The notes beneath the pieces are model-generated. The model saw only the letters and a program-made list of their open reading frames with translations, was not told where the DNA came from and did no database searches. Shown piece after piece: positions 3,331 to 37,269 of a DNA stretch of 51,736 bases (its first letter is position 1; each line of letters starts with the position of its first letter). The stretch is from positions 1 through 51,736 of the IMG/VR virus record IMGVR_UViG_2737471852_000002, one strand, 5' to 3'. The stretch comes from a virus. Lineage: Duplodnaviria > Heunggongvirae > Uroviricota > Caudoviricetes. The position numbers and the translations under genes were made by a program.

Positions 3331-3546
3331 TTAATGCATGACAAGATAATGTAGTTCCGTTTCACCTATGATTTGAGCATCAGAAGGAATACGGTCGATA
3401 CACCATTTTGGAATCTTGCGTGTTTTTGGTTTGCGTGAGGTGATAATTTGATGTTTGGTTTTAATTCTTAAGGCTGGCTTAGTTTGTAACTTTAAGTTTT
3501 CACAAACAGACTTAATAGTTTCATAGCGTTCTGTTAAATCAATCAT
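3331..3546 (-). CDS. hypothetical basic small protein
   Basis: 71-aa ORF, lysine/arginine-rich; no family recognised. Confidence 0.25.
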   Translation of the reverse strand: MIDLTERYETIKSVCENLKLQTKPALRIKTKHQIITSRKPKTRKIPKWCIDRIPSDAQIIGETELHYLVMH

Positions 3547-3569
3547 TAATCACCTCACATATTGCATAA

Positions 3570-4274
3570 TCAAACAGCCTTGCTAAATTCTCGTGGAACA
3601 CTCAGAAAATCATTGAAGCTGATAATCTGTGCCAACTCTTGACGGTACTCCTTAGCCAGCGCTTGATGGTCACTAATCAGCTTAGCCAGTCTTGATTTCA
3701 GTAAATTAATCTCATTTTCTCTTGCTTTCATCAGTTTCTCTTTGGCAATTTCTTCAAGCTCAGCTTGTGATTTATCAGCAACAATTAGAGACAGTCGATG
3801 TGGCGCTCTAATGGCTCTTTCTGTACGAACAACTCTTTGACCTTCTGGTAAATCTGCAATCACTTTACCAATCTCTACAGGGTCATACCCCCAACCGTCA
3901 CGGTCTAGTCGAGAGAAATAAGCATAAGGATTGGTTTGAAGCTCCATCAAAATAGCCATTTCGTCAATTTCGTCTTCAAGCTTGGACTGAATTTTCTCGT
4001 AAACACTTCTCATTGCTTCTTGAGAGTCTTTAATAGCTTGGAAATATCGGCGTTGTAGCTTCAACTTCAAATCAAGTTCACACCGTTCGTTCATAGAAAA
4101 ATCAATTTCAACTCTTGGAATCTCGAGTGGTTCTGGTGGAATATATGGACCTTTATTTACTTCGTGTGATTCCCGCCAAGCTCTATCAAAAGATTCACGC
4201 AAACTTAATTCGTGAATATCAAGTGCACTTGGTCGGCTTTCAATAATCATTTCATTTTCATCACGGATAGCCAT
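3570..4274 (-). CDS. hypothetical protein
   Basis: 234-aa ORF in the AT-rich module; charged and helical; no family recognised. Confidence 0.35.
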   Translation of the reverse strand: MAIRDENEMIIESRPSALDIHELSLRESFDRAWRESHEVNKGPYIPPEPLEIPRVEIDFSMNERCELDLKLKLQRRYFQAIKDSQEAMRSVYEKIQSKLEDEIDEMAILMELQTNPYAYFSRLDRDGWGYDPVEIGKVIADLPEGQRVVRTERAIRAPHRLSLIVADKSQAELEEIAKEKLMKARENEINLLKSRLAKLISDHQALAKEYRQELAQIISFNDFLSVPREFSKAV

Positions 4275-9160: not shown

Positions 9161-9802
9161 GTTATGAAGGAGCTATGAGGTTGATTCCTAGAACTAACCG
9201 AATCAACTATAACCATCACCTCCTAATATTCACGTAGGAAATCGTTAAGGGTTTTATAGTTACACCATGTGACCAACTGCATGAATAGCGTTATATACTC
9301 CTGTATATAGCACTTTTCTAGGAGTCGAGAGAGGAACGACTAACACGATACAGTTTACCCTGAAAAGAGACTTCACAGATTCTCTATATATTTCAATAAG
9401 TTATGCTAAAAAGAGACTATACCGATACTGTATAGAATCTGTGTAAAACTGCTTAGATACTTGGGAAAATGCCTTTAAATTGCATAATCATAGGGGTTGG
9501 AACAAGCCCAACTACACCTGATAAAGCCTGTTATTAACAGGTCTCTTAGAAAACCGAATAGACTTCATTCAAGGGTCATTGAAGTCATAATCATTTCAGT
9601 AGAAAAACCAGGTCTCGATTTTAAATGCAAATAGCAATCATATTCAATAAGGCAAGACGATCAGGATCAGTGAAAATGTCATTTTTGGCGTAATTACCCT
9701 TACTTTATGCATGGCCTCAACAAAGACATCATCTTTCCGTTGCAGATCTTCGCCCTTTCAAATAACGTACTTTACAACTTTCCCGAACAAGGAGTTGTGC
9801 CC

Positions 9803-10099
9803 GTGTTGTATGTTATTTACGCTCAAGACAAAGCTGATAGCCTCGAAAAACGCCTTTCCGTTCGTCCGGCACATTTAGCACGTTTACAGTTACTGCATGA
9901 TGAAGGTCGTTTGTTGACAGCTGGTCCAATGCCAGCGGTAGACAGTAACGATCCAGGGGCTGCGGGATTTACTGGCTCAACCGTTATTGCTGAATTTGAA
10001 TCGCTGGAAGCAGCTCAGGCCTGGGCCGATGCTGACCCGTACGTAGCGGCAGGAGTCTATGAACACGTTTCAGTGAAACCATTTAAGAAAGTGTTCTAA
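9803..10099 (+). CDS. YciI-like (Dabb-fold) small protein
   Basis: about 99 aa from a GTG 8 nt after AAGGAG; [21 protein letters not shown] and C-terminal [17 protein letters not shown] resemble the YciI family; GC content host-like. Confidence 0.5.
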
Positions 10100-10766: not shown

Positions 10767-10825
10767 GGGATTTCTCCTGTTATGAAAACAGGAGAAACGG
10801 CGAAGCATCACCAGATTTTTGATGG

Positions 10826-10851
10826 TTATAAAAAAGGTTGGTTTGGGAGAA
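10826..10851. other. 26-bp invertase crossover site (hix/gix-like), left
   Basis: TTATAAAAAAGG-TT-GGTTTGGGAGAA; one half-site is the reverse complement of TTCTCCCAAACC, close to the gix/hix half-sites as I recall them. Confidence 0.7.
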
Positions 10852-11334
10852 GGTTCGGCATTACCCGTTGGCGTGCCTGTTCCGTGGCCTTCCGCCACTC
10901 CGCCAACAGGCTGGCTGAAATGCAACGGGGCGGCTTTTTCTGCTGAAGAATACCCGGAACTGGCAAAGGTTTACCCGACAAATAAATTGCCTGATTTACG
11001 CGGTGAGTTTATTCGTGGCTGGGATGATGGAAGAGGGATTGATACTAACCGTAGCTTGCTTTCGTCACAGGGAGATACCATTCGGAATATAACAGGCTTT
11101 ATAAATGAAGTTAAAGGCACCATTGATACAGCAACTTTCAGGTTACAGACTGGTACTGGTGCTTTTGCCTTAGCATCTCAAGCTACGCGAAATATCTATA
11201 ATAACCTAGGCACATATGAAACAAAAAATACCCCTTACACAGGATTCAGTTTTGATGCATCCAGGGTTGTACCAACAGCATCAGAGAATCGCCCTCGAAA
11301 CATTGCATTTAACTATATCGTGAGAGCAGCATAA
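10852..11334 (+). CDS. alternative tail-fibre C-terminal cassette, currently in the unexpressed orientation
   Basis: begins at the crossover with ...GLGEGSALPVGVPVPWP...GWLKCNGAAFS...YPELAKVYP...DLRGEFIRGWDDGRG, the classic variable C-terminal domain of Mu S / lambda Stf-type fibres; no start codon of its own. Confidence 0.7.
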   Translation, partial: GSALPVGVPVPWPSATPPTGWLKCNGAAFSAEEYPELAKVYPTNKLPDLRGEFIRGWDDGRGIDTNRSLLSSQGDTIRNITGFINEVKGTIDTATFRLQTGTGAFALASQATRNIYNNLGTYETKNTPYTGFSFDASRVVPTASENRPRNIAFNYIVRAA

Positions 11335-11939
11335 TGGATAAAGCAATATTAAATAGTGAGCTTATTGCTACAAAGTCGGGGGATATTACCGTTTATAACT
11401 ATGATAGTGAGACGCAGGAATATATTTCAGCTTCAACTGAATATCTTGCCATTGGTGTCGGTATTCCTGCATATTCCTGTTTAGATGCCCCTGGCACATA
11501 TAAGGTGGGTTATGCTATCTGTCGTTCTGCAAATTTTAACTCATGGGAATATGTGCCAGACCATCGCGGTGAAATCGTCTATAGCACCAAAACTGGAGAG
11601 TCAAAAGAAATCACAGCTCCGGGTGATTACCCTGAAAATACCACAACTATCGCCCCGTTAACACCATACGATAAATGGGATGGTGAGAAATGGGTGACCG
11701 ATACTGAGGCACAGCATAGCGCCGCAGTAGACACGGCAGAAGCACAGCGTCAGTCACTGATTGATGCTGCAATGGCTTCCATCAGTCTGATTCAGCTGAA
11801 ATTACAGGCCGGACGGAAGCTGATGCAGGCAGAAACAACCCGGCTTAACGCCGTGCTGGATTACATTGACGCGGTGACGGCAACAGATACCAGCACCGCG
11901 CCTGATATTATTTGGCCTGCTTTCCCTGAGACTGATTAA
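11334..11939 (+). CDS. tail fibre assembly protein (Tfa/U-type) paired with the alternative cassette
   Basis: 201 aa, ATG overlaps the cassette stop; C-terminal LQAGRKL ... LDYIDAV ... WPAFPE typical of Tfa proteins. Confidence 0.75.
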   Translation: MDKAILNSELIATKSGDITVYNYDSETQEYISASTEYLAIGVGIPAYSCLDAPGTYKVGYAICRSANFNSWEYVPDHRGEIVYSTKTGESKEITAPGDYPENTTTIAPLTPYDKWDGEKWVTDTEAQHSAAVDTAEAQRQSLIDAAMASISLIQLKLQAGRKLMQAETTRLNAVLDYIDAVTATDTSTAPDIIWPAFPETD

Positions 11940-30251: not shown

Positions 30252-31873
30252 CAGGCCTGTCTCCCTAGCAGCTCCCAGATGTTCAGGGCTGAATTCATTG
30301 GCGCGTAGCTGATCATCACCGAGTCGGCGAGGTTCGGCGACTTGGTGCCATCAGGCTGTTTATCAACAACGATTTTCCCCACGCCATTAATGGAGTAGGT
30401 CGGCTGCGACAGCTCAATGATGAGTTTGTCTTTGCTCGCCATGGCGCTGCTGATTGAGATGATTTCGTCCGGGTTGTAGGCCATGCCCTCAACCACGGCG
30501 CGATAGGTGTTCTGGAAAAGCTTGCGTAGCCACCACCAGCTCTGGGCCTTGGCGTTGGCGAAGAAGTCCTTGTTCAGGCGTGCGGCCTGTCCGTTGTCCC
30601 CGCGCACCGCTTCATCGTCCGGATCAAATACCGCGCCGCTACCACGAAACGGTGTGGCGAGTATTGACGGTCGGCGCGCTGCGTAACGCAGTTCGTTGAT
30701 GGCGCGCGCATCGCCGCGAACGCCAGCACCCAGGCCGTCCTCGTCGAAGCGAAACTCTTCGAGGTTGTCCTGTTCGCAAAAGCCGAAGACCTTCTCAACA
30801 GACTGGTAAATGTCGCTGCCAACGCCGGACCATTCACGCACGTTCTCCAGAAGGAAGCCGTGACGGGTCGAAAAGGCATTTTTGTCCCGGCCTTCGTCGG
30901 CGACGTCCATCGCGCCCAGTCGCTTGCCCGTTGGCTGAATACCAAGTTTGATATGCGCGTCGACGGCAGCCTGTACCCAGTCGGACGGGATCAGGACGCC
31001 TTCCGCAGATGCGCTGTAGTTCAGGTCAAGTTCCTGCGCCACCACCACCGGATTGTCGATTTTCTCGCACTCCCTGCGATACCACTCTTCATCCTTGCGC
31101 GGGTCATCTCGCCAGTGGAACGTGAATACTGGTATCTTTCCGCCGTGGCGCTTCTGCGCGAACGGGTTCGCCATGCCATTAACCGAGCTCAGGTCAATAC
31201 GGCAACGGGTGGTTTGCGACAGCGCCGCATCAATCAACAGAGGACGCTGGAGGAATGCAGCTTCATCCACCAGGTAGAGCGTGGTACGGTCACCACGTCC
31301 GATATTGTCGCCAGCCTCGCCTTTGATAACCGCGCCAGTATCTGGAAACTCAACGCGCATATACGGCGCATGCTTCTTCTCGTCCCACGAACCACGAAAC
31401 TCGATGGGCAGTGTTTCCACGAACTTTCGCGCCTTCCAGAACAGCGCCTTCGGGTCACCGGTGCTGTCGACGTATTCCTCTTTACGGGAGCCGAAACCGA
31501 TAACCATTTCTTTGTTGAAGAGACAAAGCGAGCAGGCCAGCCCGATCGCGGTCCAACTGAGCCCCATTTCGCGGCTCTTTTCGGTGATGCCGTTCTCCAG
31601 TCGTTCGCGCCGCTCCATGATCCAGTGAATCCACTCTTCCTGTTTCGGGAACAGCAGAAAAGGGATGGTGACCGGCAGGCCATAATCGATGTTACGCGGG
31701 TCAGTAGTCATACCCCAGTCGATGATGAACTGTGCCGGGTTGGTGCGATAAAACTGCTTTAGCGCTGGTAGCATTTCAGGGTTCTGGCGAATGCGCTGTA
31801 AGCGCTCCATCCGCCATTCAAAAACCATCTGGTAATCAGGGTTTCTGAAATCGAATTCAAACGGAAGAGGCAT
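30251..31873 (-). CDS. terminase large subunit
   Basis: about 540 aa from ATG at 31873; ATPase plus nuclease architecture; followed by portal. Confidence 0.8.
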
Positions 31874-31945
31874 AAACAATTCCAGGCATTGAGTTTTTGC
31901 GTAACAAAGTTGATATTGTTTATGTACCAATTACAGGAGGTTTTA

Positions 31946-32157
31946 TGACACCAGCAGTTAGCGCTAAGTTGTTGGAATTAACCAACGACCTTAACAACGA
32001 AGTAAAATTGTCTGCAATTTATGCTCTCGGCGAGAGTGCTTCAGCAACGCCAGCTCATGTAAATCGCTTACTTGATTTATCTTCGGATCTAAATCACAAC
32101 GTCAAAGTCGCTGCAATTAAAGCTCTTGGCCGTATTACTCGACCAAAACAAGCCTAG
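31946..32157 (+). CDS. 70-aa protein made of two HEAT/PBS-lyase-like repeats (moron)
   Basis: CAGGAGG RBS 5 nt before ATG; LLELTNDLNNEVKLSAIYALGE and LLDLSSDLNHNVKVAAIKALGR repeats; AT-rich, opposite strand between the terminase genes. Confidence 0.5.
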
Positions 32158-32182
32158 AATCCATAGCCGCAACATGCGGCTA

Positions 32183-32656
32183 TCACCCCATCATCTTGCG
32201 GTAAATCTCTGCGGCCTGATCTGCGGTGAGGTTGGTCGTCTCGGTCTTGATCGGGCCGCCATCCTTGCCAGTGCTTTCAACCTTCAGCTTATTGGTGTAA
32301 GCGTCGCCAACCTCTTTCGCGGCCTGTTCAATCAGCTGCGCCGTCAGGGAGAAGTTTTTCATCCCCTCGGTTTTGGTTGCCATGCGGTCAAGCACGCGGA
32401 GGCGATAGGATTTGTTCGCGATCGGAATGTCGCTGGTTTCGGTCAGGAACCGTTCGCGCGTAGCGTGGAACATCTCGATCCACTTTTTGGCGAGCGTCTT
32501 ACCGCTGGCCTTCGTGGGGTCGTGAGATTCAGCCTGCTGGCGGGTGATCTTGATCCCGAATTCTTTTTGGACAGCCTCAACCACCTGCGTCGGCGTGTCA
32601 TAGCACGCAAGCGACTGAATGATGAAGGCTTTCACATCAGGTTTTAATGCAGCCAT
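32183..32656 (-). CDS. putative terminase small subunit
   Basis: 157 aa upstream of the terminase large subunit with an N-terminal HTH-like segment. Confidence 0.4.
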   Translation of the reverse strand: MAALKPDVKAFIIQSLACYDTPTQVVEAVQKEFGIKITRQQAESHDPTKASGKTLAKKWIEMFHATRERFLTETSDIPIANKSYRLRVLDRMATKTEGMKNFSLTAQLIEQAAKEVGDAYTNKLKVESTGKDGGPIKTETTNLTADQAAEIYRKMMG

Positions 32657-36486: not shown

Positions 36487-37269
36487 TTACCGCGTTATCT
36501 GCTTAAGCTGTTTTTCGGCCCAGGACTCTTCGATATCAAATTTCGTGATCAGCAGGTCGTAGAATGGCTTAACAGACTTTTTCCAGGTGTCCAGGCTAAT
36601 GGCGTCAGTAATCTGGCATACAGCAGCATAGGCTTCAGTCGACGGAAGTCGTTCATACCCACGCCCTCCGCAGCGCTTACAGTCAGCCAGAACAGGAACG
36701 CCCTGTTTCTCAGTAAGAGCCTGGTTCACTGCCTTGCCGCGCCCATGGCAATCACTGCAAGAAGCACTAACCACACCAGAGCCATTACACTTTTTGCATA
36801 GCACTTTGATGGATTCTTTGACCTTCACCATCCCGGACACGGTCATTTTCCCTTCTGGCTTACGGAATTTATTGGTAAACACGTCAGCCTCAATGAAGCC
36901 CTGACCGTCACAACAATCGCACTGCTTCACGCTGGCAGCGCTGCGGGAATAGTCCTCAAAAGCGAAGGTGGCCAACTGGTGCATCACCTGAGGTTTAACC
37001 GCGGCACCGAGCTTACGCAGTGCGGCAACCTTGTCGCATTTTGTCATCGCGTACTCAGCCAGCAGACCGATCGCCCGATCCCGGTCGTTATTGCTTATGC
37101 CCATCTTGCCGAGGAAGGCGCTGTAACCCATTGCGGCGCGTTCCTGCGTCATGCCCATGGCAGCCATTATGTCGGTACCGGTCAGTGAATCGGAGGCGGT
37201 AGCGCGCGGAGAATCGCTAATCAGTGTGGATTTAGCGAAGTGGTATTTCACTGTGTTTTCAAGGTTCAT
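36487..37269 (-). CDS. late-gene antiterminator Q-like protein
   Basis: 260 aa with Cys-rich zinc-binding region (CDCCDGQGF...CKKCNGSG...CSDCHGRG...CKRCGGRG); position between nin/rusA region and lysis genes. Confidence 0.75.
   Translation of the reverse strand: MNLENTVKYHFAKSTLISDSPRATASDSLTGTDIMAAMGMTQERAAMGYSAFLGKMGISNNDRDRAIGLLAEYAMTKCDKVAALRKLGAAVKPQVMHQLATFAFEDYSRSAASVKQCDCCDGQGFIEADVFTNKFRKPEGKMTVSGMVKVKESIKVLCKKCNGSGVVSASCSDCHGRGKAVNQALTEKQGVPVLADCKRCGGRGYERLPSTEAYAAVCQITDAISLDTWKKSVKPFYDLLITKFDIEESWAEKQLKQITR

Follow-up and report, generated by a model that had tools for sequence, protein, structure and literature searches.

Why should a prophage carry, between its two terminase genes and on the strand opposite to them, a short AT-rich reading frame that most of its relatives package without? 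We analyzed this question for positions 31874–32182 of the window, i.e., the whole 51,736-nucleotide stretch of phage DNA presented above, whose genomic setting is that of a SEN34-like, lambdoid-regulated enterobacterial myovirus prophage. An initial annotation had placed here, antisense between the terminase genes, a 70-aa protein built from two HEAT/PBS-lyase-type repeats, and the placement is as described: the HEAT ORF lies on the plus strand, and terL and the DUF2280 gene on the minus strand (Table 1). The cassette is thus reversed within the late, Q-antiterminated operon, in which a Q-type antiterminator (36487–37269, Pfam Antiterm) and the lysis genes are found upstream. We regard it as near-certain that 31874–32182 is a real, selected, protein-coding moron that encodes a two-repeat HEAT module. 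It should be noted that this kind of element is ordinary, and that the protein is already automatically annotated as "HEAT repeat domain-containing protein".

Table 1. Features of the cassette and of the adjoining terminase genes, in window coordinates.
Feature	Position	Strand	Remarks
terL, 540 aa	30251–31873	−	ATG at 31873–31871; PHROG 2 terminase large subunit, E = 2.4e-31
AT-rich cassette (moron), 309 bp	31874–32182		from terL start to terS stop; exact indel compared to relatives
−35-like hexamer TTGAGT	31889–31894	+	motif kept in subfamily 1 cassettes
−10-like hexamer GATATT	31912–31917	+	same comparative basis as the −35-like hexamer
Shine-Dalgarno AGGAGG	31935–31940	+	4 nt (TTTT) before the ATG; read directly
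CDS, 70-aa two-repeat HEAT protein	31945–32157	+	ATG at 31945; stop TAG at 32155–32157; MTPAVSAKLL...RPKQA
HEAT repeat 1	31951–32049	+	residues 3–35; helices A1, B1; invariant AIYALGE
HEAT repeat 2	32050–32148	+	residues 36–68; helices A2, B2; conserved AAIKALGR, then basic tail
9-bp GC-rich hairpin ATAGCCGCA-ACA-TGCGGCTAT	32163–32183		5 nt past the stop codon
terS-position gene, 157 aa	32183–32656	−	Pfam DUF2280, E = 9e-50; convergent with the HEAT gene

The terL gene, annotated as "TerL protein" by RefSeq, diverges from the HEAT gene, with the two start codons 71 bp apart. The label "small terminase" given earlier to the gene on the other side is one that we infer: the gene occupies the terS position, and the DUF2280 protein shares a C-terminal tail with annotated TerS. 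The last 35–39 residues (32183–32300, minus strand; ending ...YRKMMG) have 54–64% identity with the C-terminal ends of small-terminase proteins that are otherwise unrelated and occur with the same terL type (loci L004, L029, and L033–L036), and a tail of this type is retained also in a Yersinia Terminase_2 protein; it looks like a conserved TerL-docking tail carried on swappable N-terminal domains. The late-operon gene that immediately precedes terS encodes a putative phage metallopeptidase (PF18894; 32687–33307, minus strand) and is found in HEAT-plus as well as in HEAT-minus relatives. Elsewhere in the window, the tail region, otherwise on the minus strand, contains a plus-strand ORF with a YCII domain (9707–10099), which may be another moron, and plus-strand tail-collar and tail-fibre-assembly genes (10819–11939), which may be an alternative or invertible tail-fibre segment.

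The clearest evidence that the segment is an insertion comes from Citrobacter phage Omnitron, in which both flanks are 98.5% identical to those of the window and the 309 bp are absent. The Omnitron junction reads ...GGCAT-GA-TCACCCC..., i.e., 2 nt separate the terS stop from the terL start. The virion modules of the two phages are collinear with 95–97% identity; the alignment breaks exactly at 31873/32182, and no indel other than the cassette was found in the 13.5-kb virion block compared with this HEAT-less phage. The limits proposed in the initial annotation, 31874 and 32182, coincide exactly with this indel. The terS/terL junction is likewise 2 nt in SEN34 and in vB_EcoM-606R2. Among 5426 complete E. 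coli genomes, 349 contain terL of the window type and only five contain the HEAT cassette, and the empty junction, with flanks 97–98.7% identical, was found in at least 24 E. coli prophages; a tblastn search of 50,697 GenBank phage records returned zero copies of the HEAT gene. Presence or absence in related prophages, which had been proposed as a check, is polymorphic.

Morons are defined as extra DNA of deviant GC content, with a promoter and a terminator of its own that permit expression from a repressed prophage (PMC3594210; Juhala/Hendrix). In the window, 309 bp stand between genes that are separated by a 2-nt spacer in relatives, and the composition deviates from that of the neighbours, with a GC content of 0.39–0.44 in the cassette versus 0.55–0.60 on either flank, in agreement with the AT-richness remarked on earlier. 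The cassette ends have neither a target-site duplication nor terminal inverted repeats, and a transposon-like origin was rejected for lack of both.

The reading frame is well defined. A mechanical ORF list gives the HEAT ORF an earlier start, a TTG at 31897, for a length of 86 aa, and the RefSeq start models disagree, with 86 aa from the TTG in WP_136769304 (L011, 20024–20284) versus 70 aa from the ATG in WP_032214630 (L012, 3443–3655); the 86-aa model would start inside the promoter region. The start that is kept in all homologues is the ATG with its Shine-Dalgarno sequence. The near-perfect ribosome-binding site claimed for the gene is indeed an AGGAGG, spaced by 4 nt rather than 5, and (A)GGAG(G) is conserved in the subfamily 1 cassettes examined. 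We collected 16 distinct homologous sequences of 68–72 aa, with identity to the window protein down to 36%, from Enterobacter, Escherichia, Salmonella, Yersinia, and Citrobacter, all of them in prophage regions of Enterobacteriaceae or in viral contigs. Among distant members, synonymous sites are saturated (pS 0.72–0.87) and pN is 0.26–0.32, and dN/dS of close pairs is 0.15–0.36; as judged from these substitution patterns, the HEAT ORF is under purifying selection. The initial annotation had made its reading depend on conservation of the frame among homologous regions, and the frame is conserved down to 36% identity in the face of saturated synonymous change. Scans of the protein against PHROGs, PADLOC, and NCBIfam gave nothing informative, only generic HEAT-ARM similarity, and literature searches on the RefSeq protein accessions and on HEAT repeats as phage anti-defence factors yielded no relevant paper.

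The fold assignment proposed from the sequence holds on three counts: Pfam matches above the cut-offs, predicted helices, and matches to the artificial αRep proteins. HEAT_2 scores 35.1 bits compared to a cut-off of 27.7 (E = 1.7e-8) and HEAT 31.0 compared to 23.5 (E = 2.1e-7); HEAT_PBS alone, at 15.6, is below its cut-off of 20.9. AlphaFold2, i.e., the structure prediction that had been suggested, gives four helices (residues 3–12, 18–29, 36–45, and 51–65) with a mean pLDDT of 92, and the family profile matches αReps with E-values down to 2e-25, 4jw2_A being among the top structural matches. The repeats are tandem, as stated earlier, with a period of 33 residues and not of about 30; identity between the halves is 45% in the window protein and 42–61% in four homologues compared. 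Tandem units of helix A, turn, and helix B, each of about 30–35 residues, are thus present, and the usual solenoid of at least three repeats is not: there are two repeats only, at a length that is constant over 16 homologues. The protein is a size outlier of a very common fold, still within that fold. For example, an exhaustive profile search found 15,259 relatives, and 149 of the best-scoring 150 span 492–3007 residues; this representative search, dominated by long multi-repeat HEAT proteins, gave no functional information, and BFVD contained no close viral structure. By reading, the sequence has no signal peptide and no membrane segment. A DOHH-type metal site with His-Glu motifs was also rejected by reading, as the His is not conserved and the register differs. 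It should be noted that the residue after the conserved Asp (residues 16 and 49; nucleotides 31990–31992 and 32089–32091) co-varies between the repeats, being L/L in the window, F/F in Yersinia, and G/G in Salmonella. The two halves are only 54–62% identical as DNA, which makes recent gene conversion unlikely, and the co-variation may reflect a pseudo-symmetric contact.

What a module of this size can do is suggested by protein engineering. The two-module αRep bA3-2 consists of an N-cap and one repeat, has a Tm of 84.6 °C, and binds with a Kd of 3.7 nM; 4jw2_A is its crystallised 73-residue form, and the variable, binding positions of the αRep library are 18, 19, 22, 23, 26, and 30 (PMC3754942). 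These positions align with N18, E19, L22, S23, Y26, and E30 in repeat 1 and with H51, N52, V55, A56, K59, and R63 in repeat 2. Across the HEAT family, E30 and R63 are invariant, and Y26 and K59 nearly so. Such conservation would fit a conserved binding face, to be read against the background that residues of the ALGE/ALGK type are common in generic repeats too. As far as the model goes, the HEAT module corresponds in structure to the smallest αRep binders that have been made. Of the earlier phrase "minimal protein-binding module", "module" therefore stands, and binding is plausible, given the bA3-2 precedent and the conserved Y26, E30, K59, and R63.

We then considered how such a gene might be expressed. 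A motif TTGnnn-17 nt-(C/G)A(T/A)ATT is present in nine of nine distinct subfamily 1 cassettes, 24–30 nt from the ATG, with a spacer whose sequence is not conserved; the intergenic 70–75 bp of the nine alleles are only about 50% identical overall, and the motif arises in 0.6–1.2% of shuffles of each sequence. The window copy matches 8 of 12 consensus positions, below the threshold of a strict promoter scan, which for this reason returned nothing. By this comparison of alleles, the cassette carries a candidate σ70-type promoter motif that is conserved across them. At the other end of the gene, the hairpin has a dG of −13.3 kcal/mol (z −5.3), and its final base is within the terS stop codon; most other alleles have a hairpin of differing sequence at the same place. 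The window hairpin has no U-tract on either strand, nor do the hairpins of any allele, because the terS stop codon and tail come immediately, and it is therefore not a canonical intrinsic terminator. No Rfam family was found in the region. In one locus (L035, 4274–4485), about 210 bp of additional AT-rich non-coding DNA extend from the HEAT stop to terS, and no hairpin directly follows the stop. The window also contains a perfect 10-nt inverted repeat (CATAAACAAT / ATTGTTTATG, at 31871–31880 and 31915–31924), which in the late, minus-strand mRNA would draw the terL AUG together with the preceding 7 nt into a stem, the predicted accessibility there being low (0.17). This repeat is found only in the window-type allele (the window and L010); it is absent from other alleles, and a conserved stem occluding the terL AUG was rejected, since it is not kept across them.

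In every locus with neighbours examined, the HEAT gene is antisense beside a terminase gene, and the homologues fall into two subfamilies. Subfamily 1, the window type, includes the Yersinia and Salmonella versions and is always antisense between terS and terL; the position is unchanged even where terS is of a different family (Terminase_2, Yersinia). Subfamily 2, with proteins 36–44% identical to that of the window, comes from Citrobacter and Enterobacter prophages, and its gene lies antisense directly upstream of a Terminase_2 terS, with start codons 29 bp apart, which places it after the lysis genes and before terS. Genes of subfamily 1 and of subfamily 2 alike are directed away from the neighbouring terminase gene. 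Several subfamily 2 loci have, upstream of the HEAT start, a decayed relic of about 70 bp of the 5' end of a Terminase_2 terS that has lost its start codon (L045 at 3860–3920; L016/L050, L044, and L040), and the HEAT gene there lies upstream of a different, intact terS. The relic may be kept as the carrier of the HEAT promoter; no clear promoter motif was found in it. In L045, a second reversed ORF (3392–3829, plus strand; 145 aa, without a Pfam match) is located between the HEAT gene and terS and could form a two-gene moron together with it.

Among close relatives, the cassette tracks terL, with two loci showing that alleles are swapped: L033, in which terL is 85–90% identical to that of the window and the cassette just 51–62%, and L029, in which terL is about 89% identical, the cassette 95–99% identical, and terS different. 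HEAT alleles and empty sites, as far as these comparisons reach, assort independently of the terL and terS modules; thus, the junction behaves as a mosaic module boundary that holds one of several old HEAT alleles or nothing. A site-specific mobile cassette was rejected, the pattern being read as mosaic recombination at a module boundary.

Taking these observations together, we lean slightly towards the view that the cassette as a whole is a lysogen-expressed HEAT-module moron, which may block superinfecting phages in the manner of the tail assembly blocker Tab or act on another cytoplasmic target. Because the gene opposes the late operon and has its own predicted promoter, it would be transcribed from the repressed prophage. 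During the lytic cycle, Q-modified polymerase would transcribe through the cassette; in lambdoid phages, late transcription past a Q-type antiterminator is expected to read through hairpin-like structures. The protein would be a small stoichiometric binder acting via the helix-B face (Y26/E30 and K59/R63), and, made by the lysogen, it would attach to a protein that the superinfecting phage needs for virion assembly or packaging and inactivate it, or it would bind another cytoplasmic target. Expression in lysogeny and action as a small stoichiometric binder are probable, to judge from orientation, promoter, and fold. The more specific role, in which the protein binds a late or assembly protein of superinfecting phages and so excludes them or defends against them, is drawn by analogy with Tab and other late-operon morons; it is put forward tentatively, as the likeliest single role, though with a probability well below even. 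It is reasonable to consider the gene a candidate for a small factor in prophage defence or exclusion; among the PADLOC defence models the protein matches none beyond generic HEAT similarity. The modest promoter match, the hairpin without a U-tract, and the scarcity of the gene in E. coli genomes and phage records also count against this reading. The cassette is tiny, and clean isogenic empty-site relatives exist (Omnitron and many E. coli prophages), which makes the hypothesis cheap to test.

A somewhat unlikely alternative, and the one that survives best, is that the binder has a host target, for example a physiological regulator or a protein that senses for defence, and serves lysogenic conversion or counter-defence, to the benefit of the lysogen or of the phage upon induction or infection. 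The cassette architecture and the binder-like fold fit this explanation equally well. A cytoplasmic target is expected, as the protein has neither signal peptide nor membrane segment, and at one fixed place between conserved genes both divergent alleles and empty sites occur, a pattern that is known from anti-defence loci also. However, the neighbours are terL, terS, and the metallopeptidase gene, with no adjacent Aca-type HTH regulator; no similarity to described anti-defence proteins was found in PHROG, PADLOC, or the literature; and orientation against the late operon together with a modest σ70 promoter would fit constant expression in the lysogen more readily than a quick burst early on.

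Regulation of packaging is quite improbable. Under this explanation, the protein would bind its own TerS or TerL, or the cassette would tune terminase stoichiometry in cis, through uncoupling of terL translation from terS, convergent transcription, and the hairpin on the late mRNA. Both subfamilies do lie 29–75 bp from a terminase start codon and point away from it, the insertion removes the 2-nt terS/terL coupling of empty-site phages, and the inverted repeat of the window allele can pair the terL AUG region in late mRNA. Yet a gene with a late function should lie on the late strand, the AUG-occluding stem is missing in other alleles, and the strong constraint at the protein level disfavours a purely cis role. 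Moreover, the partners vary (terS of the DUF2280 or Terminase_2 type, terL of the window type or Terminase_6N), HEAT alleles are independent of the terS and terL types, and most relatives package without the cassette. Finally, the explanation that there is no functional protein gene, the ORF having arisen by chance in AT-rich spacer DNA or the active product being an RNA (antisense or non-coding), agrees with the shortness of the ORF and the lack of a significant PHROG match, but is very improbable and largely refuted by a frame and length kept in 16 homologues to 36% identity, saturated synonymous sites with pN of about 0.27, the significant Pfam match, a pLDDT of 92, the conserved AGGAGG, and the absence of an Rfam match.

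The preferred reading, a lysogen-expressed HEAT-module moron, can be compared with several known systems. With respect to the αReps and the PBS-lyase-type (EZ) HEAT-like repeats (HEAT_2, HEAT_PBS; MTH187, YibA, CpcE/F, DOHH), the distinction is that the HEAT protein is natural and has two repeats only, without specialised caps and with a period of 33 residues instead of 31; its natural relatives are nearly all long multi-repeat solenoids. The HEAT protein has no lyase or hydroxylase context. Like the classical lambdoid morons (HK97 gene 15, lambda bor and lom, P22 pid), the cassette is inserted between genes that are adjacent in relatives, deviates in GC content, and has its own (here predicted) promoter and a 3' hairpin. 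Unlike them, it has a hairpin without a U-tract, and its product is a soluble helical-repeat protein, whereas bor, lom, and gp15 are envelope or membrane proteins. Lambda bor lies in reverse orientation between the lysis genes and terS, and the subfamily 2 HEAT gene has the same position and orientation.

In architecture, the closest known system is Tab of Pseudomonas phage JBD26, an 83-aa protein encoded antisense between terS and terL, on the minus strand; it has its own promoter, is expressed constitutively from the prophage, and keeps invading phages from assembling their tails (Patel et al. 2024, PMC10884400). An anti-Tab gene directly after terS, in late orientation, neutralises Tab in the prophage's own lytic cycle; Tab counts as a moron, related phages lack it, and anti-Tab is present wherever it occurs (PMC10884400). 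The initial annotation had recorded neither this analogue in position nor the second subfamily upstream of terS, nor that the segment is a moron cassette with a presence/absence polymorphism. There are important differences. Tab has no Pfam domain and no sequence or profile similarity to the HEAT protein (hhalign probability 0.2%), and JBD26 is a Mu-like siphovirus with a different TerL; homology to Tab or anti-Tab, and of the window TerL to JBD26 TerL, was rejected by sequence and profile comparison. The HEAT cassette has no equivalent of anti-Tab: no conserved ORF was found on the late strand of nine cassettes, and an antidote ORF on that strand was rejected. The virion module is the same, with at least 95% identity, in HEAT-plus and HEAT-minus phages, and this, together with the lack of an anti-Tab-like ORF, leaves self-immunity without explanation and counts against a Tab-like action. 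Expression and defence have been shown for Tab and are proposals for the HEAT gene. Since there is neither homology nor a partner ORF on the late strand, the statement that the cassette is a Tab system is not supported.

A broader proposal, which we consider unlikely, is that the mini-HEAT family is a natural αRep-like, Tab-type defence of Enterobacteriaceae prophages, constitutive in lysogens, binding a virion-assembly or packaging protein of superinfecting phages via the conserved helix-B face, and without a linked antidote, and that terminase junctions are a recurrent docking site for reversed defence morons in unrelated phage lineages. If the Tab-like reading were true, a second, unrelated small-protein family would guard lysogens from the same terS/terL junction, which would suggest that prophage defences by blocking of assembly extend beyond the one case known in Pseudomonas. 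Nature would then have shown, moreover, that a specific binder needs no more than two HEAT repeats, which is relevant to the engineering of αRep-type scaffolds; if it were false, the cassette would simply be another uncharacterised prophage accessory gene. The points of likeness are nonetheless several: both genes encode small proteins (83 aa in Tab, 70 aa here) on the strand opposite to the late operon, between terS and terL; both point away from terL, with start codons about 30 bp apart in JBD26 and 71 bp apart in the window; both have a promoter of their own, predicted in the case of the HEAT gene; and both are absent from related phages. By this analogy, it is a reasonable hypothesis that the HEAT protein works like Tab.
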